Shown here: one piece after another, positions 201 through 60,622 of the stretch
Numbering within the stretch: the first letter of the stretch is position 1
Layout: the number at the start of each line of letters is the position of its first letter
Virus record (IMG/VR): IMGVR_UViG_3300042301_003480
Coordinates: 1 to 60,622 of that record
Length of the DNA: 60,622 nt
Reading direction: 5' to 3' (one strand)
DNA from: a virus
Taxonomy: Duplodnaviria; Caudoviricetes
The notes under the pieces: model-generated
The model's database searches: none
What the model was told of the DNA's origin: nothing
What the model saw: only the letters and a program-made list of their open reading frames with translations
Program-made: the position numbers and the translations under genes

Positions 201-218
201 CAGAAACACTGGTTCTCA
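201..218 (+). repeat. 18-bp CAGAAACACTGGTTCTCA, copy 1 of 3 (attI-like junction)
   Basis: Identical copies at 762-779 and 60125-60142; ends in the same GTTCTCA core as the attC-like sites. Confidence 0.85.
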
Positions 219-473
219 TCTTGACTTCCACCGCATGACTTTTGCTTCGCGCTCCCGACGCATCGCGTCTAGTACATTTGCCATCGCAAGCAGGTCAGAC
301 ATCTCTGACGCATCGGTTAGTTCTTGTTGTCCGCGCGCTCGCTCGGCGGCGTGAAGCCGGAGGCTTACTGCACCGTGCATCAACGCCCGTATTTCCGCGT
401 CGATCACCATTGTGATCGCCTGCCCGTGAGAACCACGCGATGCAGCGGACACCTCATCAGCCTCGTTTGTCAT
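216..473 (-). CDS. Hypothetical cassette protein, 85 aa
   Basis: AGGAG RBS and ATG inside attC 427-515; TGA inside GTTCTCA at 212-218. Confidence 0.7.
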   Translation of the reverse strand: MTNEADEVSAASRGSHGQAITMVIDAEIRALMHGAVSLRLHAAERARGQQELTDASEMSDLLAMANVLDAMRREREAKVMRWKSR

Positions 474-515
474 GGTCGCTCCTGTGTTCGATGCCGCTGA
501 TCGCTGGCGTTCTCA
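427..515 (+). other. attC-like integron recombination site (89 bp)
   Basis: TGAGAAC-CACGC-GAT[G]CAGCGG[A]CA ... TGCCGCTGATC-GCTGGC-GTTCTCA: R'', 5-bp spacer, L'', L', 6-bp spacer, R', with two unpaired bases at the usual positions. Confidence 0.8.
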
Positions 516-634
516 CTTTGTCCGTTCCAAGAGACGCTCCAGCACCTCGTCGGCAGCACTATGGAGCCGACTCATCTTGTAATCCTCAAACACAGAGCGA
601 GCAAGTCCGATGGCCGTCCGCTCCTCGTCGGTGA
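508..634 (+). repeat. 127-bp exact repeat of the window end (60496-60622); circularisation or assembly overlap
   Basis: Base-for-base identity; the length equals a common maximum assembler k-mer. Confidence 0.95.
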
Positions 635-737
635 GCCGCAGCCTGGCAACCTCTGCCTCTAGTTGCTGCACTCGCTCCATTGCCTGGATGAGCGCATCCA
701 GATCGTCGGGCATCATCGGCGGTATCAAATCACTCAT
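513..737 (-). CDS. Hypothetical protein, LTDxERxAI...LLERTK family
   Basis: GGAG RBS upstream; C-terminal module shared with 1280, 60140 and 1005 ORFs; stop in the R' box. Confidence 0.75.
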   Translation of the reverse strand: MSDLIPPMMPDDLDALIQAMERVQQLEAEVARLRLTDEERTAIGLARSVFEDYKMSRLHSAADEVLERLLERTK

Positions 738-761
738 GTCATGTCTCCCTTTCTACGCCCA

Positions 762-779
762 CAGAAACACTGGTTCTCA
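762..779 (+). repeat. 18-bp CAGAAACACTGGTTCTCA, copy 2 of 3
   Basis: Identical to 201-218 and 60125-60142. Confidence 0.85.
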
Positions 780-959
780 GTTCTTCCGTTTGGCTCTCCG
801 CGCGAACACCGGCACAACCGTTGCCCCGATGACGCGACGCCAACCAGCAACCAACACGCGGTTCTTTGACCGCCGCAAAACCTCACCAGAGCAGTTCTCT
901 ACCAACTCCCAAGACACCGGCATCTCGCTCTTTGCGCTTCCGCACTTTGGACACGGCAT
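777..959 (-). CDS. Hypothetical cassette protein, 60 aa (CPKC N-terminus)
   Basis: AAGGAG RBS; TGA in GTTCTCA 773-779; bounded by the mini-attC at 979-1007. Confidence 0.55.
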   Translation of the reverse strand: MPCPKCGSAKSEMPVSWELVENCSGEVLRRSKNRVLVAGWRRVIGATVVPVFARRAKRKN

Positions 960-978
960 CTCGCTACTCCTTTGCCCT

Positions 979-1007
979 TGAGAACCAAGCGATCCTGTTC
1001 GTTCTCA
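979..1007 (+). other. Collapsed (internally deleted) attC-like site, 29 bp
   Basis: TGAGAAC-CAAGC-GATC-CTGTTC-GTTCTCA keeps R'', both spacers and R' but lacks the L stem. Confidence 0.65.
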
Positions 1008-1283
1008 GAATAGTCTCTTCGCCAACCCGCGCAACGCATCGGCGTGTGCAGCGACCTCTGGGGTGTCTTCCTCGTCCCACTCGTCGGCCTCTCTCGCCGC
1101 CCATGCAACTGCGAGTTGCTCCGCTTCGGTGAGCGTGGGCGAGCGGCACAGCGGGACGACGCCGTGATTGCCCGTCACAACCGCGTCAATCGCCTTGGCT
1201 TCCTCTTCGACGGCGTAGACATCGTAGATGCGGTCGCCGTCCGCGAGCAGGACCGCCCACGCTATCGGCTCGTTGTGGCTCAC
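1005..1283 (-). CDS. Hypothetical protein (EPIAWAV N-terminus; TLTEAEQLAV module)
   Basis: GTGA overlap with the upstream gene; stop in GTTCTCA 1001-1007. Confidence 0.7.
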   Translation of the reverse strand: MSHNEPIAWAVLLADGDRIYDVYAVEEEAKAIDAVVTGNHGVVPLCRSPTLTEAEQLAVAWAAREADEWDEEDTPEVAAHADALRGLAKRLF

Positions 1284-3007: not shown

Positions 3008-3870
3008 ACGTTTCGGCCCAGGGAGGTCTGCAATGCCTGCATGGCGGCGTAATAGGCCGACACCTGCGTGTCCGTCATGCTCGCGCCGATGCTGTACGAC
3101 AGGATCCTGTGGTTAGAAAACAATTGCGGCGTTCCCGCTGAATTGCTGGCATGGACAAACCAGCTATTTGCGTGTGTTGCCGGCGTTGTGTTGGCTGTTC
3201 CTGTCACTTTGCTTGTGGCATTGTTGTACGTCGTAATCGCAGTGCTGCTCGTCCGAGTGATCGTCCACAGTCCGCCTGGGAGGGTCGTTACACCGGCCGC
3301 GAAGGTGTCGTCGGTGTTTGCAGTTCCGCCCCATACGGCGCGTACCTGGACGAGGCTTGCGCCCGACAAGCGATGAGTGACCTGAAACTGGTGCGATGCG
3401 CTCGCTGTACCTAACAACGCGCGGCTACTGCCAGCGGCTAACGACGGGATGTATGCCGACAGGTGACCTGTTGCAATCCCAGGAATCGCGGCTGGCGTCA
3501 GTCCAGTAGAGAGGTACTTACTGGTGCCGTCGCCCAAGAGTCCGCCGCTCGCGCCCGTCTCGGAAAAGTCGCCGCTCACAAACGGCCCGTTGTTCGTGTC
3601 GGTGGTTCCGCCGTACTGCGTCCCGCCGAGTGACTGCCCGCGATAGAGCGGCACCAGACACGCCTCAAGGCCCGTGCCGCAGAAGAGATTCAGCCGGTAG
3701 AAGCGGTCGCGGATGCCCGCCAGGTCGATGGCGGCGCAAAAGGCGCTGACGGCTCGCATGGTCGAAGCCGACACGCTGCCTCCGTTGGCGACAACTGCCG
3801 TCCTCCAGGCGTTGGCTTCCGGGTGGACGCCAGAGGCGAGCGGACGCAAGAGGCGGGGATTCATCGGCAT
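3004..3870 (-). CDS. Putative virion or fibre protein with a ConA/LamG-like beta-rich domain
   Basis: G/T/S-rich; GDGTSKYLSTG and C-terminal MTDTQVSAYY pattern; start at MPMNPRLLRP. Confidence 0.55.
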   Translation of the reverse strand: MPMNPRLLRPLASGVHPEANAWRTAVVANGGSVSASTMRAVSAFCAAIDLAGIRDRFYRLNLFCGTGLEACLVPLYRGQSLGGTQYGGTTDTNNGPFVSGDFSETGASGGLLGDGTSKYLSTGLTPAAIPGIATGHLSAYIPSLAAGSSRALLGTASASHQFQVTHRLSGASLVQVRAVWGGTANTDDTFAAGVTTLPGGLWTITRTSSTAITTYNNATSKVTGTANTTPATHANSWFVHASNSAGTPQLFSNHRILSYSIGASMTDTQVSAYYAAMQALQTSLGRNV

Positions 3871-7756: not shown

Positions 7757-9441
7757 GGCAATCTCCTGCTGGGCCCGAGGATTACGTGGGGGTCGGTGGA
7801 CTCCCGCTGGCGGCGCTTGCGCTCCGACAGCCACTTCACCCACCAAGGATCGGGACCGTAAGTCCGTGGGGGTGCGTGGTATTTGGGTTCGTAGGCGCAG
7901 AGGTACTCAAGCGACTGGCAGGCGTGAACCTCGCCGCGGGTCTGCGGCTGGTCGGTCACAAAGACCTGCCCGTTGACCGTCGTCGTCTTCTTGCGATACC
8001 GCTTCAGTTCCCGAATCAGGTTGGGGCAGGAACCCTCCAGGATCTTGAGCCTGGTCGTCCCGTCGCCCTGGATATGGAGCAGTTGACGAACGATGGACGT
8101 TCTGGCCGGGATGTCATCGGAGCCCGGGATAAACCCATGCCCGCCGATGGTGAAGCGAATCTTCCGCTTCTTCAGCTCTTCGGAGTACAGCTCATGCGGC
8201 AATCGTCCTGAACCAAGATCACGGAGCAAACCACCGTGCATGTCCATGATCGCCGCGTGAATGTGCTGACTCAGAACCTTCACCCCAAACTGCTCGCCCC
8301 AGATCAGCGCGTTGCAGTTCCGGATGTACAGTTCGTCATACACAACCAGGAATCGCTCATGCGGCGGGACTGCGGCGAATAGCGTTGCCATCACCGCATG
8401 GCCAGGGTCAATCGCCACATACCGCGTCCAGTCAGGCGGAATGACCCCATCCTTCAACTCCGCCCGCGGCAGGATATGCACGCTGCGGTTGAACGTCGGG
8501 TACATGAGCGTGGATTCGGTGGTGAACTCACCCTCGGCACGCATCCGGACTTCGTCGGCGCCCAGAGCGGACCAGCGTTCGATGTTCTTTCGCTTTTCCT
8601 CAGAATCAATAAAGTCGTTGTCCAAAAATCTGAACGTGAACTTCTTGATGATTGGATTCTCTTGCCCCTCCTCCACCGCTCGGTCGGCACGTTCGCACAG
8701 GCCAAGGAGCGCATCGTTCCGGGACCAGGGCATGGCAGACCAGACGAAGCGACCCTTGCGGTCTGCCAAACGCGCCTGAGATTCACCGACGAACGCTTCG
8801 TTTGTAACGTCCTCGTCAATCCAAATTAGGTCGGCCTGGTAGCCTTGGGGGGGCTCTCCTTCTGAGGAGAAACACCAGATCGTCCAGCCGTTCGTCAGCT
8901 CCAGCTTGTTGAGGTAGCCGGCGTTCTTCAGCACCCAGGAGACATCCTTCACCAGCCGCGGCGGGATCAGCGGGGGAGCGGGCTTGCTCTTGCTCTTGTC
9001 ATCACCCGGGCGGATGGATCTCCACTGGCCCGTTTTCTCATCCTTGATGATCCGAAACGCCCCGGCTTTGAGGAGAATCGGATAAATCACCAAGCCAATG
9101 TGGGGCCAGTTCCGGCCGATGATTGCGAGGTTGCCGCCTTCTTTGGGGTACTTGCCGTATGGATCCTGCCCCGTAGCTGCGCGGGCCGCTTCCACCGCCA
9201 CGGCCAGAGTTTTCCCGCCTCGGTTACCACCCAGAACAATCCGCTCCGAGGCCAGGCACTTGTGGAACTCATCCTGGTGCGGCATGGGTTCATACAGCCG
9301 GAGCGACTCTAGCCGCCGCTCCGTGAGGGCGGTCTGGACATCCTTGAGCTGCCCTAGCTGATGCTGGGTGACGTTCCCCAGCGGACCTTCAGGAGTCGGT
9401 GGGGGCGGAATTTGGCGGGGGTGTTTCTTCATATTCGCCAC
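7753..9441 (-). CDS. terL: Terminase large subunit
   Basis: HQ adenine motif, Walker A GGNRGGKT, Walker B LIWIDE, RNase H-like YVAIDPG. Confidence 0.92.
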   Translation of the reverse strand: MANMKKHPRQIPPPPTPEGPLGNVTQHQLGQLKDVQTALTERRLESLRLYEPMPHQDEFHKCLASERIVLGGNRGGKTLAVAVEAARAATGQDPYGKYPKEGGNLAIIGRNWPHIGLVIYPILLKAGAFRIIKDEKTGQWRSIRPGDDKSKSKPAPPLIPPRLVKDVSWVLKNAGYLNKLELTNGWTIWCFSSEGEPPQGYQADLIWIDEDVTNEAFVGESQARLADRKGRFVWSAMPWSRNDALLGLCERADRAVEEGQENPIIKKFTFRFLDNDFIDSEEKRKNIERWSALGADEVRMRAEGEFTTESTLMYPTFNRSVHILPRAELKDGVIPPDWTRYVAIDPGHAVMATLFAAVPPHERFLVVYDELYIRNCNALIWGEQFGVKVLSQHIHAAIMDMHGGLLRDLGSGRLPHELYSEELKKRKIRFTIGGHGFIPGSDDIPARTSIVRQLLHIQGDGTTRLKILEGSCPNLIRELKRYRKKTTTVNGQVFVTDQPQTRGEVHACQSLEYLCAYEPKYHAPPRTYGPDPWWVKWLSERKRRQRESTDPHVILGPSRRLP

Positions 9442-9574
9442 AGAAATCAGTGGGCATCGTCTCGGGGAATCGGTCCCAAGCTCTCTGCCCGATGAGCGTC
9501 GGCGGATACCGGCGACACTCCCCGTGCATCTCCTCCGCCACTGGAATCCACCAACGGCAATCCTCGCACTTCAT
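9389..9574 (-). CDS. Small Cys-rich protein (CEDC...GECRRYPP...FCGE)
   Basis: GAGGTG RBS; four-Cys pattern; overlaps both neighbours. Confidence 0.55.
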   Translation of the reverse strand: MKCEDCRWWIPVAEEMHGECRRYPPTLIGQRAWDRFPETMPTDFCGEYEETPPPNSAPTDS

Positions 9575-10073
9575 CCACCACCTCAAAGTGTTTCATCGTC
9601 ATCGCTGCTTCGATCACCTGCCGCCGAAGCTCGGCTTCCAGCTCTTCCTCAGTCATCAGCTCCAAGGGCTTCTTGGCTCCACCCATGGCGGTGTTCGTCG
9701 TCACCAAGCGGACCACGCTGTCCAGCATCTTCGTCCTGAAAGCCCCACCTACAGGCGCATCGTAGAACTGCTTCATGTACAGATTGGCAAACCCCCGGAC
9801 GCCCCCGAAATACTCCATGAGTACTTCCAGGAGTTCCGAGGAGTGGGGGATGTTCGCCCCGCCAATCCTGGCCGCCGCCACAAAGTTTTTGACGGCCCCC
9901 TTTTCGATCTCTTCCAACTTGCTGTTCCGCTTGCCCTTGCGGTCAGTGCGGATCTTCTTGTTCCGGCACTTCCGGCAGCGGGCGTGGAAGCCATCCTTGG
10001 ACTTGTGGTAGTAGGCGGTTGTCGCGGGCCACGCTAGGCCGCACGCTATGCAGACCTTCTCAGCTTCCGACAC
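9447..10073 (-). CDS. Possible terminase small subunit with N-terminal Zn finger
   Basis: CxxC...CxxC; helical; immediately upstream of TerL. Confidence 0.5.
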   Translation of the reverse strand: MSEAEKVCIACGLAWPATTAYYHKSKDGFHARCRKCRNKKIRTDRKGKRNSKLEEIEKGAVKNFVAAARIGGANIPHSSELLEVLMEYFGGVRGFANLYMKQFYDAPVGGAFRTKMLDSVVRLVTTNTAMGGAKKPLELMTEEELEAELRRQVIEAAMTMKHFEVVDEVRGLPLVDSSGGGDARGVSPVSADAHRAESLGPIPRDDAH

Positions 10074-11463
10074 TCGCCACCCAGACGCTTCCAGTCACCA
10101 CGGGCTTCAAGCCGCTGCCCCGCACGGCCGCCTCCACGCCGTGGAAAACGAAGTAGTCATGTCCCGCCAAGAAGTATTTGGCCTTGCTCCGCCAGCCCCG
10201 GATGTCAGCCTCCACGGAAGCCTCGTCATGCTCGGCGTCCAAGTAGACGATGTCGAACTTGCCATCCGGGAACGTGGCGGCAATGTCCGGAGATCGGCCG
10301 ACCACATGGTCGATTGAGTAACCAGCCGTGTTGCGCAGGAACACCTCCAAGGGCTTCCCCCTGGAACCGTCGTACGCCTTGCAGCCGCCGTCGTTCTTGG
10401 AGCCCTCCCACGTATCGATGCAGGTCACCTTGGCGCCGGCCTGGGCCATGATGATCGCACTACGACCCGCCCAAGACCCAACCTCGCAGACATGCGGCGG
10501 GCGGCCGTGCTTAGTGGTGAAATCCTTCACCAACTCTTCCAGGGCTGCGACATCCTTCTCGGGCAGTTCCATTCCCATTCCATCGAACACACGCTTCTCC
10601 GGGATCCGAATCGCCACCGGAGACTGAAAGTCCACCAGCTTCACGCCACTTTGGACGTTGGCTTCCCAGCAGTCCTTCATCTTCTTAGACACGCCCTCGG
10701 CTGTAATGACCTGGGGCTTGCCGACGCACTTGGGCTTCCAATGACCCGCCCAAGCATCCCAGTTGCAGTAGACCGGGTTGTAGCCCAGCCTCTGCGTGCC
10801 GATCATGGACAAGTCCCTGGTCATGGTTACGTCTTCAGTGCTTGCCTTGTCAGCGCAGAAGTGGTCCTTCCACTCGTAGTAAAACCAGGGCTTGTCGTCC
10901 GTCGTCTTCGGCTCAGTGAGGTCAAAGGCCCGCATGTCGTACATGATCAGCCCGGTCGGCAAGGCCGCGCATTCCTGGATGCCCGCCAGCTTGATCGCCG
11001 TGTGGCGGTCGTACATCTCCAACTGGAAGTCTGGGTTGGGGTTCTCGCTGGCCAGGTTGTTCCAGCGAAACACGTACACGCACTCCACCGGGGGCGGGCC
11101 ACAGTACGGAGCCCCGATCACACACGGCCCCTTGGGATAGTGGTTGACCAAGAAGTCAAACGACGACTGGAAGAAGGGCTTGGCGTCCGGCTGGCCGTTG
11201 TTCAGGTCCGGCTTCATGTCCGAATCGACCATCACCAAAACATCCACGCCGTGCTGCCGGGCCTGGAGGACAGCCCGGTTTCTGGTCATGGTGATGGGCG
11301 TGTCGGCCAGGTTCCAGATGCGGATGTTCTCCACCCGCGGATCCCGGGAGAGATCAACGACAAGGGGAGTCATCCACTCCCGGATGTCCGGCACCTCAGA
11401 GGAGATGCCGCCGTTGCCACCGTAGCTAAACGTAACGATTCCGACGTTGAACTTCTGTTGCAC
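10060..11463 (-). CDS. GT-A glycosyltransferase fused to class I SAM methyltransferase
   Basis: TRN...LVMVDSDM (DxD), TG, ED in the N-half; CEVGSWAGRS, IDTW, VYLDAEH, AGHDY in the C-half. Confidence 0.8.
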   Translation of the reverse strand: MQQKFNVGIVTFSYGGNGGISSEVPDIREWMTPLVVDLSRDPRVENIRIWNLADTPITMTRNRAVLQARQHGVDVLVMVDSDMKPDLNNGQPDAKPFFQSSFDFLVNHYPKGPCVIGAPYCGPPPVECVYVFRWNNLASENPNPDFQLEMYDRHTAIKLAGIQECAALPTGLIMYDMRAFDLTEPKTTDDKPWFYYEWKDHFCADKASTEDVTMTRDLSMIGTQRLGYNPVYCNWDAWAGHWKPKCVGKPQVITAEGVSKKMKDCWEANVQSGVKLVDFQSPVAIRIPEKRVFDGMGMELPEKDVAALEELVKDFTTKHGRPPHVCEVGSWAGRSAIIMAQAGAKVTCIDTWEGSKNDGGCKAYDGSRGKPLEVFLRNTAGYSIDHVVGRSPDIAATFPDGKFDIVYLDAEHDEASVEADIRGWRSKAKYFLAGHDYFVFHGVEAAVRGSGLKPVVTGSVWVASVGS

Positions 11464-30592: not shown

Positions 30593-31363
30593 ATGCTGTA
30601 CGGATACTGTCGGGTTAGCACGGACATGCAGGACGCCTCATCAGAGGCACAGCGGGCGGCGCTGGAGGACTACGCCAAGCGTACCAACCAGACCCTGGCC
30701 GAGGTGTTTGTCGATGAGGATGTCAGCGGGTCCGTGCCCCTGAGAGATAGGCCAGCCGGCAAGCGGATGTGGGACCGGCTTCAGCGTGGGGATACCGTGG
30801 TTGTGACTACCAGGGACAGAGGCTTCCGTTCCCTGGTTGATGCGGCCACCACCCTCATGGCCTGGAGAGAGCAGGGCATCCGCCTGCATATCTGCGACTT
30901 CCCCATCGACCTATCCACGGACGAGGGGGAGCTGGTGTTTCTCCAGGGTGCGGTGTTCTCCCAGTACGAGCGGAAGCTGATCGGCCGCCGGATCAGGCGG
31001 GGGATCGAACACCGCAAGAAGACTGGTCAACCGTACGGTGGGACCAGGCCATGGGGCTGGATCCGCAAGGAGCAGAAGTGGGTGCCGCTACCCAAGGAGC
31101 GGGCTCACGGCAACCGCATGCTCACCATGCGCCGGGCGGGCTGCTCCTGGTACACTATCGCCGTCGCTTGCATGGATTGTCAGAAGCCCGCGGTGAGGAA
31201 GAACGGTTCCGGGTACTACCACGTTGCCGATGTTCGCACTCTTGTACGTGCGGCCGAAGCCGAATATCCAAAGCTAGCGCCAACTTTCTGGCGAGATCCC
31301 GACTGCGAACGGAAGCTAGTCGAACTGAAATCTGTTGCTCCTCTGCTATTCGTCGCAGAGTAA
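30593..31363 (+). CDS. Serine recombinase (resolvase/invertase family)
   Basis: GYCRVST catalytic Ser, Q, FVDEDVSG, DRP, GDTVVVTTRDR, ER..I..R...G. Confidence 0.92.
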   Translation: MLYGYCRVSTDMQDASSEAQRAALEDYAKRTNQTLAEVFVDEDVSGSVPLRDRPAGKRMWDRLQRGDTVVVTTRDRGFRSLVDAATTLMAWREQGIRLHICDFPIDLSTDEGELVFLQGAVFSQYERKLIGRRIRRGIEHRKKTGQPYGGTRPWGWIRKEQKWVPLPKERAHGNRMLTMRRAGCSWYTIAVACMDCQKPAVRKNGSGYYHVADVRTLVRAAEAEYPKLAPTFWRDPDCERKLVELKSVAPLLFVAE

Positions 31364-44023: not shown

Positions 44024-44851
44024 ATGACCATCCTTGATCTCGCCAGAACCTACTGCAACCGCGTCGGCGGAAGTCCCGGCTACCTTGAGCAGCTTGAGGT
44101 CTTCGTTCGCCGTCTGCCTTGGCAGGCTCGGGACTTGACTCCCGATCTCTGTGACGACTACCTGACCAAAGCTCTGGCCCATCTCGCACCCTCCACGGTA
44201 TACAACCACCGCCGCATGCTCGGCCGTCTGCTCGCCTTCGCTGCCGCTGAAGGAGTGGTGGACGCGAGTATACTCCGGCCCCTGCGCCGCGTCAAACGCC
44301 TTCCTCCCAGCCCAATTGCGTGGTCCCACGCCGAGATTCGCAGGCTTCTGGCGGTAGCCGCGAAGCTGACTGGGGGTGTGAAGTGCCCTCACAGCACGCT
44401 CATGCAGGCATGGCTGCTGGTGGCCTACTCCACCGGGCTGCGCCTGGCAAATTTGCTGGAGATTCAACATAGCCAAATCCGTGGCCACAGGCTTCTGATC
44501 CGTCAGTTCAAGACCGGGGAGCCGCATGTCTGCTACTTGGACGACCATGCCCTAGCAGCGATTGCCACGCTCCCGCGGCGAGGCCCGAGAGTATTCGGTG
44601 ACCTCATTTGCCGAGACAAGATTCTGGCCCAAATGCGCCGTCTTTGCAAGACCGCCGGAATGTCGGGCAGCACTAAGTTTCTGCGGCGATCCGGGGCAAC
44701 TTACGCAGAAATCGCAGGGAAAAATGCCAGTGGACACTTGGGGCACAAGACCCCCGGCATGAAGGTCTACTACATAGACAGGCTGCTGCTGGCGGAGGAA
44801 AAGCAGGAGGGGGCAACGGCCCCGCCGCTGGAGTTAGCGGACAGCCCCTAG
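44024..44851 (+). CDS. Tyrosine recombinase/integrase
   Basis: STGLR (R), FKTG (K), KFLRR (HxxR variant), HLGH, YY; STV..H in the core-binding domain. Confidence 0.9.
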   Translation: MTILDLARTYCNRVGGSPGYLEQLEVFVRRLPWQARDLTPDLCDDYLTKALAHLAPSTVYNHRRMLGRLLAFAAAEGVVDASILRPLRRVKRLPPSPIAWSHAEIRRLLAVAAKLTGGVKCPHSTLMQAWLLVAYSTGLRLANLLEIQHSQIRGHRLLIRQFKTGEPHVCYLDDHALAAIATLPRRGPRVFGDLICRDKILAQMRRLCKTAGMSGSTKFLRRSGATYAEIAGKNASGHLGHKTPGMKVYYIDRLLLAEEKQEGATAPPLELADSP

Positions 44852-47800
44852 CACTTCCAGCGGGTCCAGTGCCGTCTTCTTCCGCTCCCGGGCCCGCTTG
44901 GCGGCATCGCTCTGGAGAATCCGGTACAGCAGGTACATCTGCCGCTGATCTTCCGGCATCGACCGCAGGGCATCGTCCGGCACGGTGATGTTCTCGTACG
45001 TCCGGACGCCGGGGGTAGTCTCCAGGATCTGGTTCAGCATGCCCCGGGCGGCCTGCCGCTTGGTCCGCTCCTCGTCAACGTCGGTGAGCTTCACGCCGGC
45101 CAGGACGTTGAACGCTGCCTTGAGGCGGGCATCGGCGGGGTCCAGCCGGTCATCGTTGAACTGGCGGTACATGCTGATCCCGCGGGCCCCGAACGGGACG
45201 AAGTTGATGATCGCCTGCTCCAGCGGCCGACCGATGGGGCCAAGGTCTTGCTCTAGGACAGAGTACAGATCCGACATATCCCGGCCGGTGTAAAGCTGCC
45301 GGTTGGTGATGTACTCCAGCGGGGCTTTGATGAGGGGGTTGGCCTGCCCCAAGATGTTGCTGCCCGTCTTCTGAACGGTGTCTGCGAACCTGGCCGCGGC
45401 CGTCGTACCCACCCCCGGGGTGAACAGGTTCAGCGTGGACTCAAACGGCAGGTCGATGTTGGTGATGTACCGCTGCAACCCCTCTGCCGGCTCGCCTCCA
45501 AGGAGCGAAGGCCAGCCTTCCGGGAGAGGAATCGCAGCCGACTGTCGGAGGTACTCGGGGATGAAGTTGTCTTCGCTGGGCTCCGTGCCCCGGGTGACAG
45601 CGCGGATGGTTTGACCCTGCAATCCGCCTGGGCGGTACAGGGTGTTCTCCGCAATGCTGGGCAAAATGCCTTTCTGGAAACTGTAGAACGGCGCCACCCG
45701 CTTCATGACGTTGCGCTCAAAGCCCGTAAACGCTTCGGGCGAGTAGTCAACGAGCAGGCGACGAACCGTATCACCAGCCTCGGCCGGATCGACCCCCTGG
45801 CGGATGAGTGTCAGGAACGTGCCGATACGCAGCGCATCTTCTGACCGGCTCCCGACCGCGTCGTTCATGGCCAGGAGGGGATTGGTCTGGTACGGCCTGG
45901 GCTCTCTGGTAATCCCGACGCCTCGGAAAGACGCCAAGTCGCCAAGGAAGTTGCGCCATGTCCGGTTGGCCGGGTTCGCTCTGCGGCCCTGCTGCAATGC
46001 CTGGCGGGTCGATTCGGCAATCGTCGGCCCCGAGCCGACATACATGCCGCCCACCTTCCCGGGATCTTCCACGCCCGAGATGTCGCTGATCACATTGCCA
46101 GACGCAAGCCGCTGGCTGCTAGAGTCTGCGATGAACTGGCGCATCGCCTCATCGGAGGACAAGTTGCGGTACGGCGACCGCCCCCCCTGAATCCGGGAAG
46201 CCAGTGCCTCGTAGTTCCCGCCGCTCGCCCTGCCAGCGGCCCACGTATCCAGCGGATTGAAAGCCCCTTCGGTCGCCGCGTTGTACATGCCGCTGTACAG
46301 ATTACGAACATGAAAGGCGGGTGAGGCGAGAGCCCCGATCTTGAACGCACTGGTGAACTGATCGAAGGCGTTCATCAGGCCACGCTCCGGAAGAGCCAGG
46401 CGGCTCTGCGGAGTCAGGACACGCATGGCATCTACGAACTGGCGTGGGATCGACAGCTCATCTAACGGCAGGCGTTGCGCTGGAGGGGCCTGTTGCATCC
46501 AGCGGTTGGCGAAGTTCTGCGGGTCAAAGCCCAGTTCCCGGGCCGCGTCTGCAAGAGAGACACTCTGCCCGCCGACCACTCTTCCGGCCGGAGTCGGATC
46601 CACCCTGCGGGCGAGCATCGCAAAGAGCTGGTCTGCGTTTGCGAGGTTCTCCGCCTGGCCGCGCTCATATCGGAGGGCGTTGTTCCAGGACGGGGTGTCG
46701 AAGATTCCCAGCCCTTGGTCGGCAAACTGCGTGTCGGCCTTCATGACAAGCTGGCCGAGCTTCTCAAAGTTGGCGTTCACCTCGCGCTGGGCGGTGGCCA
46801 TCATCGCAGCCTGCTCGGCCGGCGTGGCGGCTTGATAAGCAGGGGAGTTCCGCACATTGTCCGTGATGTAGCGGTAGGGGTTGGTCTGGCCGTCAAAGGT
46901 AAACGCTGCGTTGTCGATTCCGCCGAGCGTGCGCAAGGCTCGCCGCAACCGGACGCGCCGGGCCTGGTCGGACGGTGCGGTGATTAAGTCCTGCTGAAGG
47001 GCCCGAGAATCCAAGCGGGGATCGACATTCCCCGTCAGGTAACGGAATGCCCGAATCCCACCTGGCAGATCGTAGGCAGGATCCCGGGAGCGGCCGAAGT
47101 TGTCTTGGACAGAGAATGCCCGCTCGTCCCGGCCCCAAGAGCGAAAGTCATACGGCTCGCCGCCAGGGATGTCTGGTGCAGAGGGGTCTAGGAAGCGGCG
47201 AAGTTGCCTGGGGATAAACCCACCAGCTCCGCGGGACTGCGCCACGGGGGTGGCAAGACCAGCCTCCCGAGCGGCAAGCACAGCCTCTGGCCCCAGGTCC
47301 GCAAACCGATCCCGGATCGCACGGAACTCAGGCACGTTCTCCAGGACATAATCAGCAACGTCGTCGCCCGTCGTCTTCAGCGGGGCACCCGTCAGCGTCG
47401 GGCCTTGGAGGGGACGAGACTCTACGTAATCAGCCAGCCGATCCCATAGCGTCTGGCTGTCGAACGTGCGGAGTTCTTCCGGGATGGCTGCTGCCCCGCC
47501 GGGGAGATACGTAGCCGGCAGGGCGTCCGGAACGGTGGCATTGCGGGCGTCATACTGGAGCAGGGCATAGGCCCGATCAACGGCCTCTTTGCGGTTTCTG
47601 GCGTCCCTCGCGGCGACACGCTTGGCAAACTGAAGATCATTCGTCAGCTCCATGTTGGAACTGACCGTCCCTAATCCGCCGACGTTCTGGTCGAACAACG
47701 CCGCGGCCGTGCGAGTCGCAGGACCAAGAACGGGAGCCATCTTGGTGAAGTTGCCGAACCTGTCCAAGCCTTCGGCAATCGCATCGCCAATCGCCCCGCC

Positions 47801-59532: not shown

Positions 59533-59738
59533 GCTTCCAGCATCTCCCCGTCTATCATCCCCCGTATCTCCTCTGCCAGCCGTGCCGTCTCGTCGCTCGG
59601 CTCGCCATGCTTGAGCAGCGACCTGCACCGCTCGTCGATCTCCCACAGGGTGGTCAACGCCTTGTGGCCCAGCCGGGCAGCGTCGTAGTCGCCCTGCTCA
59701 TCGGGGAGCGTGAATCGGAGTGTCGCTACGGGAGACAT
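59529..59738 (-). CDS. Hypothetical protein (ATLRFTLPDEQ...)
   Basis: Protein conserved with the allele at 2-97. Confidence 0.75.
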   Translation of the reverse strand: MSPVATLRFTLPDEQGDYDAARLGHKALTTLWEIDERCRSLLKHGEPSDETARLAEEIRGMIDGEMLEA

Positions 59739-59790
59739 GTCAGATGTGATGTGTTGCGGAAACGGATTGCGGGCGACAACACGCAAACTG

Positions 59791-60009
59791 TCACTTTTCG
59801 CCACTATCTGTGCAGGCCGTGAACGTACACGCCAACTCCTGCATCGCCAGCGACTCCGGGTAGCCCTGGCGAATCAGCCACTCGGTCATATCGCCATCCG
59901 TCGCGGGATCGTACAGGCGCGGGAACCCGTACCTGTGACCGCCAGCCGGATCGACCCAGTACGGGCGTGAAAGCCACGCGGGCGGGATTGGTGTGGCAGT
60001 ATCGCCCAT
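59791..60009 (-). CDS. Hypothetical protein (WVDP..G.RYGFP...WL...GYP)
   Basis: GAGG RBS; absent from the alternative allele. Confidence 0.7.
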   Translation of the reverse strand: MGDTATPIPPAWLSRPYWVDPAGGHRYGFPRLYDPATDGDMTEWLIRQGYPESLAMQELACTFTACTDSGEK

Positions 60010-60124
60010 GTCTCAAGCCTCTTTATCTAACGCCGCAATAGCACCGGGCGACCGACATTTTCCCCGTGCGTCGGGCGGTGGCGGTGCGCGTTATCACGTT
60101 TGAGTCCGGGTTTATCGGGAGCCG

Positions 60125-60142
60125 CAGAAACACTGGTTCTCA
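60125..60142 (+). repeat. 18-bp CAGAAACACTGGTTCTCA, copy 3 of 3
   Basis: Identical to 201-218 and 762-779. Confidence 0.85.
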
Positions 60143-60472
60143 CTTCGTCCGCTCCAACAGCGAACTGAGTACTGCGGAGTCTACGCCGGCAGCCCGATAC
60201 ATCGCGCGAAATATCGCCTGCCGTTCCTCGTCGGTGAGCGTGGGCTTTGTGCCGCCGCCATCCACCCCGCGAGCCGTCGCATGGCCGGGCCGCAACCCAA
60301 GGGCATCGCGGAGCGTGGCCCACATGGCGTCGGCCTTGTCTCTCGGCACATCGGCCGACACCCAGCGGCCAACCTCGTAAAGGGCAAGGGCTGCAGCGCG
60401 AACCGCGTCCCCGTGAGAACCAGCGGATGCAAGAGACGGCTCGGCTTTGTCTTGCGTGTTGTCGTTGTCCAT
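60140..60472 (-). CDS. Hypothetical cassette protein (GSHG N-terminus; LTDEERQAI...LLERTK)
   Basis: AGGAG and ATG inside attC 60414-60503; stop in GTTCTCA 60136-60142. Confidence 0.75.
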   Translation of the reverse strand: MDNDNTQDKAEPSLASAGSHGDAVRAAALALYEVGRWVSADVPRDKADAMWATLRDALGLRPGHATARGVDGGGTKPTLTDEERQAIFRAMYRAAGVDSAVLSSLLERTK

Positions 60473-60503
60473 ATCTCGCCGCTCCTGATCCTTCACGTTC
60501 TCA
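60414..60503 (+). other. attC-like integron recombination site (90 bp)
   Basis: TGAGAAC-CAGCG-GAT[G]CAAGAG[A]CGGC ... GCCGCTCCTGATC-CTTCAC-GTTCTCA; same geometry as 427-515; the one stem mismatch is G:T on the bottom strand. Confidence 0.8.
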
Positions 60504-60622
60504 CTTTGTCCGTTCCAAGAGACGCTCCAGCACCTCGTCGGCAGCACTATGGAGCCGACTCATCTTGTAATCCTCAAACACAGAGCGAGCAAGTCCGATG
60601 GCCGTCCGCTCCTCGTCGGTGA
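60496..60622 (+). repeat. 127-bp exact repeat of 508-634
   Basis: Base-for-base identity. Confidence 0.95.

Follow-up and report, generated by a model that had tools for sequence, protein, structure and literature searches.

Can a phage hold integron-type gene cassettes without carrying an integron integrase? The question is raised by the two ends of a phage genome of 60,622 bp (IMG/VR virus record IMGVR_UViG_3300042301_003480, analysed whole and referred to here as the window; classed as linear, CheckV completeness 100%), where small genes, every one of them on the minus strand, stand next to hairpin sites that resemble the attC recombination sites of integrons. The original prediction, made from the sequence of the window, was that the phage shuffles small accessory genes by attC-type site-specific recombination. 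Based on the comparison with related contigs, the small genes at the contig ends are probably an integrase-less array of integron-type cassettes, similar to the clusters of attC sites lacking integron integrases (CALINs), with the polarity of the sites reversed relative to the genes.

The evidence that carries this reading comes from the boxes that bound the sites. On the coding strand, each site opens with a box NNNNAAC (R5) and closes with a box GTTNNNN (R3), and the closing box of site i can be compared with the opening box of its own hairpin or, across the gene, with the opening box of site i+1. The related contigs provide 157 consecutive site pairs, 115 of them informative, and in 81 of these the closing box was 4/4 complementary to the opening box of the next site, compared to 12 in which it was complementary to the opening box of its own site (shuffle control for the across-gene matches 22.8 ± 3.7, maximum 35 in 2000 shuffles). 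For single-gene pairs, with a gap of ≤450 nt, the across-gene match occurs in 74/91 and the own-hairpin match in 3/91. When the pairs are reduced to 69 gene clusters, the proposed attC-type shuffling of small accessory genes remains supported by these relatives, with 54 across-gene matches against 3 within the hairpin (shuffles 12.2 ± 2.7, maximum 24 in 5000), and 13 distinct perfectly complementary box pairs were found. It should be noted that the ad hoc attC finder missed two bacterial arrays (G006 and G007), so the box-pairing statistic stands without a genuine-integron positive control. Judged from these sequences, across-gene complementarity is the signature of integron cassettes and points to exchange at AAC/GTT via a circular form, since a circle with one perfect site that is opened at AAC/GTT leaves a half box at each end of the inserted unit. 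Neither a hairpin acting in cis in the mRNA nor homologous exchange within a repeat predicts complementarity across a gene, and both are disfavoured for this reason.

The covariance model built in this analysis for the site family (R1) matches the window at exactly three sites, all on the minus strand, plus one weak match elsewhere. The three sites are:

427..515 (89 nt), minus strand: attC-like site 1; R1 87.4 bits, E 1e-18; a member of alignment A1
60414..60503 (90 nt), minus strand: attC-like site 2; R1 94.1 bits, E 3e-20
979..1007 (29 nt), minus strand: collapsed site; R1 24.4 bits, E 0.0013

The weak match, at 46435-46511 on the plus strand (15.8 bits, E 0.15), lies antisense within a gene of 1243 aa and is probably a chance occurrence. 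On the minus strand, the 5' side of site 1 is composed of the R box arm TGAGAAC (515-509), a 6-nt spacer, the L arm GATCA (502-498) and a covarying stem; the loop holds AGGAG and the ATG of gene B1 (473-471), and the 3' side consists of a return arm with a bulged T (449) and a bulged C (442), a 5-nt spacer and GTTCTCA (433-427). Site 2 repeats this architecture with a different inner stem (GGAG-CGGC), the ATG of gene B2 (60475-60473) in the loop and the two minus-strand bulges at 60436 (T) and 60429 (C). A sequence check recovered the single plus-strand architecture that had been claimed for both sites, exactly as it was worded: TGAGAAC, 5-nt spacer, GAT[G]CA, a stem with an extra A, loop, TGATC, 6-nt spacer and GTTCTCA, with the extra bases at G442 and A449 in site 1 and at G60429 and A60436 in site 2. 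The collapsed site (979-1007) is reduced to R box, spacer, GATC, spacer and R box, without an inner hairpin, and its junction carries a fuller hairpin in one lake-metagenome contig (joint 993 to 493).

The motif GTTCTCA is itself enriched, with 14 copies on both strands of the window against 5.8 ± 2.5 expected (14 was reached in 0/100 shuffles), and 9 of the 14 lie within 212-1007 or 60136-60503. The six plus-strand copies that had been placed at gene boundaries do lie there: each holds the reverse complement of the TGA that ends a minus-strand open frame. These frames range from 39 to 139 codons, the shortest of them being truncated by the end of the contig.

The sites are members of a large family. 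A search pattern with fixed R boxes matched 57 IMG/VR loci (49 distinct sites, either 49 nt or 88-91 nt long), patterns for the inner stem only matched 111 and >131 loci, a metagenome scan returned 33 matches, of which ~21 were judged true members, and added short forms of 49-56 nt, and a relaxed scan of all collected DNA gave 505 sites. In relatives, the number of sites rises to 7 or more, and a megablast comparison of the window ends with the phage collection returned no match. Among 47 distinct long sites, 97.4% of the stem cells are paired, versus 87.8% in shuffles (0/500 reach the observed value) and 30-45% with slid partners, and double-sided changes affect 97 cells versus 35.8 in shuffles. 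Six pairs change on both sides, one pair occurs in all four Watson-Crick forms, and pair 24/25 is G-C in 20 sites, A-T in 13, C-G in 9 and T-A in 3. The bulged C is kept in 47/47 and the bulged T in 44/47, and the spacers are always 6 and 5 nt. The structure of the sites is under selection.

With the R boxes left free, sets of 92 and 120 sites retain AAC in 88/92 and 99/120 and GTT in 90/92 and 112/120, and the outer box positions vary (29 and 41 distinct 5' boxes, respectively); the boxes of some relatives lie nearer to the consensus RYYYAAC (GGCTAAC, GCATAAC). Every site has the L box GATCA/TGCATC, although each search pattern demanded all or most of this box. In attC sites as described in PMC5027507, AAC is the sole conserved stretch and marks the point of strand exchange, with the bottom strand cleaved between A and C.

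The polarity of the sites can be read from the same features. On the coding strand, AAC lies on the 5' arm, the 3' arm carries the extra bases at positions 16 and 23 (counted from its outer end), and the 5' spacer is 6 nt and the 3' spacer 5 nt long. It is the bottom strand of attC that recombines, with its extrahelical bases opposite the AAC arm, and those of attCaadA7 are named G16 and T23 (Nivina et al. 2016, PMC5027507); positions 16 and 23 would be their equivalents here, if the counting of positions in that account is as we infer it to be. The attC geometry that had been claimed thus matches this account in the 7-bp R box, the 6x5 spacer and the two bases opposite AAC, but departs from it at base 16, which is C and not G. 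With the AAC arm and the opposite extra bases both placed in this way, the coding strand has, by sequence, bottom-strand geometry.

Classical cassettes have their genes on the top strand and the attC site downstream of the gene; here the hairpin precedes the gene. Among 1225 site pairs, hairpin and downstream flank are alike and the upstream flank different in 12, and the converse holds in 1. Among 33 same-gene pairs, 3 clear and 2 moderate cases share the upstream hairpin but differ in the downstream one, compared to 2 borderline cases of the converse. The counts are small and not independent, and they suggest that a hairpin travels with its downstream gene more often than with its upstream gene.

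The units that such an exchange would move can be delimited at the ends of the window, and the order of features at each end, read along the minus strand, is given with them:

213..509 (297 bp), minus strand: cassette B1, comprising site 1 and gene B1 (216-473, 85 aa); bounded by the G|TT of GTTCTCA at 212 and 509
60137..60497 (361 bp), minus strand: cassette B2, comprising site 2 and gene B2 (60140-60475, 111 aa); occupies the slot of B1 in the other haplotype
510..773, minus strand: gene C unit, with a gene at 513-737 (74 aa) that ends LLERTK*; flanked by site 1 and a type 1 junction
774..1001, minus strand: Zn-ribbon cassette, with a gene at 777-959 (60 aa); preceded by the collapsed site
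1005..1283, minus strand: upstream array gene (92 aa), with its stop codon within the R box 1001-1007
Left end: gene 1280-1612; gene 1005-1283; the 29-nt site; Zn-ribbon gene 777-959; 18-mer junction; gene C 513-737; the 89-nt site; B1 216-473; 18-mer junction; intergenic region; start of gene A'
Right end: gene C (cut by the contig end); the 90-nt site; B2 60140-60475; 18-mer; intergenic region; gene X; gene A

The two ends are related to one another. The final 127 nt of the window (60496-60622) repeat 508-634 exactly and include a partial second copy of gene C (60501-60622), positions 1-92 are 84% identical to 59636-59727, and 198-218 equals 60122-60142, at which point the identity ends. The unrelated B1 and B2 segments sit between shared stretches (198-218/60122-60142 and 508-634/60496-60622). 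In the related contig L011/L012, the Zn-ribbon gene, gene C and B2 are contiguous with the left-end type of intergenic region, so that cassette B2 is found there in the setting that belongs to B1 in the window. The length of the exact overlap, 127 nt, equals a common assembler k-mer size. Taken with the 84% identity and the arrangement in L011/L012, the overlap leads us to read 1-507 as a probable second haplotype of 59636-60495 left attached by the assembler, one haplotype with B1 and without gene X and the other with B2 and gene X. The exact repeat and the 84%-identical ends likewise indicate that sites 1 and 2 are one genomic slot in two variants, not two places in one genome. Naive circularisation of the contig produces an in-frame A'::C fusion open reading frame, which is probably not real.

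This self-overlap is also the point from which the sites could be dismissed as chance inverted repeats or an assembly artefact, because both long sites sit where the contig overlaps itself and their z-scores as folded single-stranded DNA are unremarkable. Hundreds of independent covarying copies, in other contigs and in lake metagenomes under separate study codes, refute such an origin, which is extremely improbable. The sequencing runs listed as holding the left 3 kb of the window are lake-water or freshwater metagenomes with separate study codes, and no RNA run is among them.

For a cassette array, the replacement of B1 by B2 is the exchange that is expected: the two sequences (213-509 and 60137-60497) are unrelated and have identical boxes on both sides. 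Cassette B1 also occurs behind a different upstream gene in L008/L009. Further, a 122-kb metagenome contig (L101) contains at 9000-10100 an island of 58% GC with three sites of the family, where the other 1-kb bins of the contig range from 29-50% GC, and one of the island sites is nearly identical to site 1. The expectation that gene-content breakpoints in relatives would fall at the GTT cores was borne out in part, with the box-bounded replacement of B1 and B2 on one side and swaps at coding motifs, and not only at GTT cores, on the other. The order of cassettes among relatives went against shuffling, as only 1/56 cassettes in the related arrays compared was followed by two different neighbours, and no arrays among these differed cleanly by the gain or loss of one cassette.

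The mechanism that would account for these features begins with the cassette, which on the coding (minus) strand would read C, hairpin, GTTNNNN, gene, NNNNAA. When single-stranded, the coding strand would form an imperfect hairpin and so imitate a recombination site in double-stranded DNA, with a 7-bp R box, an unpaired spacer of 6x5 nt, the L box GATCA/TG[C]ATC, a terminal loop that varies and two extrahelical bases. Cleavage between A and C of AAC, by a tyrosine recombinase of the integron-integrase type, would free the cassette as a circle, which could re-insert at another R box or at one of the hairpin-less 18-mers. The enzyme would most likely be supplied by the host, since the phage has none. 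Because the hairpin precedes the gene, its loop and return arm usually also carry the ribosome-binding site, ATG and first ~15 codons of that gene, and the R box provides the stop codon of the previous one.

The 18-mers are junctions of a different kind, and three copies are present in the window:

201..218, minus strand: type 1 junction, the 18-mer TGAGAACCAGTGTTTCTG; an R-type box with the B1 stop codon, 4 nt and GTTTCTG
762..779, minus strand: type 1 junction, copy 2; between the Zn-ribbon gene and gene C
60125..60142, minus strand: type 1 junction, copy 3; after B2, the allelic counterpart of 201-218

Exact copies of the 18-mer are present in 13 IMG/VR contigs, where they follow the stop codons of different genes and sit at the downstream end of the arrays. 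Judged by sequence and position, the 18-mer may act in the manner of attI, as a double-stranded landing site whose overlap would be 6 bp. One or more boxes of the form NNNTAAC (GATAAC, CATAAC or TATAAC) follow the 18-mer in most contigs (99-215 and 60010-60139 in the window; L002-L013) and are reminiscent of accessory recombinase-binding repeats. Matches to the 18-mer in bacterial genome contigs (11 in unrelated taxa, compared to ~17 expected by chance) were treated as chance.

Several observations weigh against a cassette array. The box pairs of the window are all identical, so the cassette signature is drawn from the relatives only. The R boxes TGAGAAC/GTTCTCA agree with the integron consensus RYYYAAC/GTTRRRY only at AAC/GTT, as the original prediction had already stated, and the extrahelical base 16 is C and not G. 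Three of the six GTTCTCA copies at gene boundaries (212, 773 and 60136) belong to junctions that lack a hairpin, and the 18-mer at such junctions breaks the box-pairing rule. Half sites and split sites also occur. Contigs of four lake runs include short-hairpin forms (joints 450/451 to 493) and a joint from 507 to 1000 that shares 8 letters; these joints probably come from other genomes, and their flanking sides are only 20-24 letters long.

The folding of the sites raises a further difficulty and leads to the first of two other explanations. Both strands were folded, and the bias toward the bottom strand that attC-type recombination predicts did not appear: the energies of single-stranded DNA have no strand bias, both long sites adopt the same fold on either strand and neither strand, as single-stranded DNA, is more stable than its shuffles (z -0.5 to -1.4). 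RNA of the coding strand does fold better than shuffles (z -2.9 and -2.7, compared to -1.25 and -0.87 for the antisense), which would be expected if the hairpin were mainly an mRNA element that couples translation of the next gene to UGA termination, or a processing or stabilising site, with mosaicism as a by-product. Additional features suit this role. In 45/49 distinct sites, an upstream frame of at least 48 codons terminates at the TGA of the 5' box, the loop has a start codon in one fixed frame in 44/55 contexts (the frame continues for at least 50 codons in 37) with a Shine-Dalgarno sequence in the stem or loop, both long sites of the window hold the start codon of the following gene in the loop, and every site is co-oriented with its genes.

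An mRNA element does not explain why, where boxes vary, the arms of one hairpin are fully complementary in only 3/91 cases and the boxes flanking a gene in 74/91. Across the 13 inner-stem pairs of the 47 sites, 8 cells are G-T and 5 are A-C, such that G-U is not in excess and wobble is not enriched on the coding strand; G-T and A-C cells that are equally rare are unusual for a purely RNA structure. Moreover, 11/55 sites lack a start codon in the loop, and translation signals are absent from the 49-nt and 29-nt forms. Rfam gave no match to the window ends, at the gathering score or with E up to 10, though it is not confirmed that Rfam includes an attC model; this result is counted against an attC identity as well as against an RNA element. 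A role mainly in the mRNA is accordingly quite unlikely. The hairpin is surely present in the mRNA as well and may well affect translation, which is ranked here as a secondary role beside that of a cassette site. Read-through of the UGA or a role similar to that of a selenocysteine insertion sequence (SECIS) was rejected, as the stop shares a frame with the loop ATG in the 89-nt sites but not in the 90-nt sites.

The second explanation dispenses with a site-specific recombinase and has conserved linker or regulatory modules shuffled by homologous or illegitimate recombination, in the manner of the promoter and stem-loop cassettes (PeSL) of T4-type phages. It draws on the fact that relatives recombine at the coding motifs LTDEER and LLERxx, which fuses neighbouring genes. 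Two close relatives (L006, reverse strand 3039-3429; L010, reverse strand 577-1347) have an in-frame fusion of gene C with gene X or with a B2-like gene, with breakpoints at these motifs and with the loss of the stop and of the 5' arm of the hairpin; thus units of the array can also be domains of one longer protein. Lake contigs also have joints at these motifs. Further, in 118/1225 pairs the hairpin interior is at least 85% alike and neither flank is 85% identical, half and split sites occur, and no integrase lies beside any array.

Many of the array genes are also paralogues with a C-terminal LTDEER...LLERxx domain, for which duplication fits as well as capture. Four array proteins (513-737, 1005-1283, 1280-1612 and 60140-60475) share a C-terminal module of ~40 aa, LT[DE][DA]E[RQ]xAI ... 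LLERTK or a weaker form of it, and the ending L-x-x-[RQK]-x-x closes 39/55 proteins upstream of sites in relatives. What general recombination cannot yield is the set of 13 across-gene complementary box pairs that switch exactly at AAC/GTT, and it leaves the fixed extrahelical bases and the attC-identical asymmetry of the spacers unexplained. It is an unlikely explanation for the array as a whole.

The remaining difficulty for a cassette array is the enzyme. The integron integrase (TIGR02249) is absent from the window and was matched in 0/5 related records (3 of them at least 98% complete). PF00589 occurs in 3/5 of these records, in none of them beside the array, and one relative that is 100% complete has no such protein at all. 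The window encodes a P22-like portal, a terminase and tail proteins along with two recombinases:

44024..44851 (275 aa), plus strand: small tyrosine recombinase, the sole one in the phage; PF00589 28.3 bits, phrog_1 integrase E 9e-24
30593-31363 (256 aa): small serine recombinase of the resolvase/invertase type; not near the array

The tyrosine recombinase lies 15 kb from the array, and its usual H-x-x-R box reads F-L-R-R. It matched neither TIGR02249 nor any PDB sequence, and on these grounds it appears to be a divergent phage-integrase or Xer-like protein and is a candidate enzyme only. Two bacterial genomes, to which the chance 18-mer loci led, do encode true integron integrases, and IMG/VR yielded one more; no sites of the family were found near these three.

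Measured against what defines integron elements, the sites share with attC the conservation of AAC/GTT only and the geometry of an imperfect hairpin, and in the relatives the half boxes that flank a gene reconstitute a complementary R box on circularisation, as in a cassette array. A CALIN consists of at least two attC sites close together with no intI, and the window has two full, allelic sites and one collapsed site. As the full sites are allelic, the real genome would have one full and one collapsed site per haplotype.

The genes of the array offer little further guidance as to function, as the cassette proteins have no family in PHROGs, Pfam or NCBIfam. The gene at 1005-1283 belongs to a protein group marked by 'P(V/I)AWAV', which sits behind full hairpins in relatives, and the related-locus search found no relatives of a 273-aa gene that adjoins the array. 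Just upstream of the likely start of the gene at 1280-1612, and downstream of an AT-rich stretch, 1544-1603 forms an inverted repeat whose 14-bp arms (GCGATCCCGGCGGG ... CCCGCCGGGATCGC) match perfectly around a loop of 32 nt, which is not attC-like and could be a regulatory hairpin or terminator.

Placed beside known systems, the family is closest to integrons. The R box, spacer, L box, extrahelical bases on one arm, variable loop and AAC/GTT-only conservation are those of attC as set out in PMC5027507. Complementary boxes flank each gene in the phage family as they do in integron cassettes, and the length classes (29, 49-56 and 88-91 nt) are set by loop size, which can be likened to integron attC. 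The phage sites differ in that they precede the gene and often encode its start, in the box TGAGAAC and in the C at base 16; the array has neither IntI nor a recognised attI, and many of its cassette genes are paralogues.

CALINs have been reported from phages before. Qi et al. 2023 (PMC9892861) describe 17 in 10,705 phage genomes and report that IntI1 recombined some of the phage attC sites. Those clusters resemble the array described here in having attC sites without an integrase, but were found via IntegronFinder/HattCI and so fit the standard model, and the arrays of TJE1 and PH101 are described in the same source as having the structure typical of bacterial arrays, unlike the reversed arrays here. 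Compared to the CALINs of that account, the present family is far larger (hundreds of sites in lake viromes), off-consensus in this phage and reversed relative to the genes.

The sedentary chromosomal integrons with Vibrio cholerae repeats (VCRs) are alike in that near-identical bodies serve many unrelated cassettes (here, 118/1225 pairs). VCR arrays adjoin intIA in one bacterial chromosome, and the present family is instead spread over many phage contigs without an integrase. The size of one such repeat, VCR2, is given as 133 bp (PMC5027507).

The PeSL of T4-type phages combine a promoter with a stem-loop and act via homologous recombination. They share with the present family the placement of small accessory phage genes, each behind a conserved stem-loop, and the shuffling of these genes among related phages. 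PeSL are not known to have AAC/GTT cores, extrahelical bases or across-gene box complementarity. Literature searches by term, covering titles and the beginnings of abstracts, returned nothing on this site family, on reversed phage cassettes or on start codons in attC loops.

A broader proposal can be put forward tentatively, with somewhat less assurance than an even balance would allow. Freshwater phages may keep a community-wide pool of 'mirror-image' cassettes, in which the site leads the gene and provides both its start and the stop of the previous gene. Phages unrelated to one another would trade these cassettes, over a GC difference of 30 points and with no phage-borne integrase, through a borrowed host IntI or an unrecognised recombinase, and the 18-mer would be their attI-like landing site. 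If the sites recombine in this manner, cassette exchange would be a routine, one-gene-at-a-time trade among lake phages and not only a bacterial device. This would explain how some of the gene-by-gene mosaicism of phages arises and would link the cassette pools of phages and bacteria. It would also represent a compact design found in nature, with recombination site, stop codon and translation start in a single 90-nt element. With hundreds of sites and 13 box types, the family is large enough to test how an integrase chooses its strand when the genes lie on the 'wrong' one.

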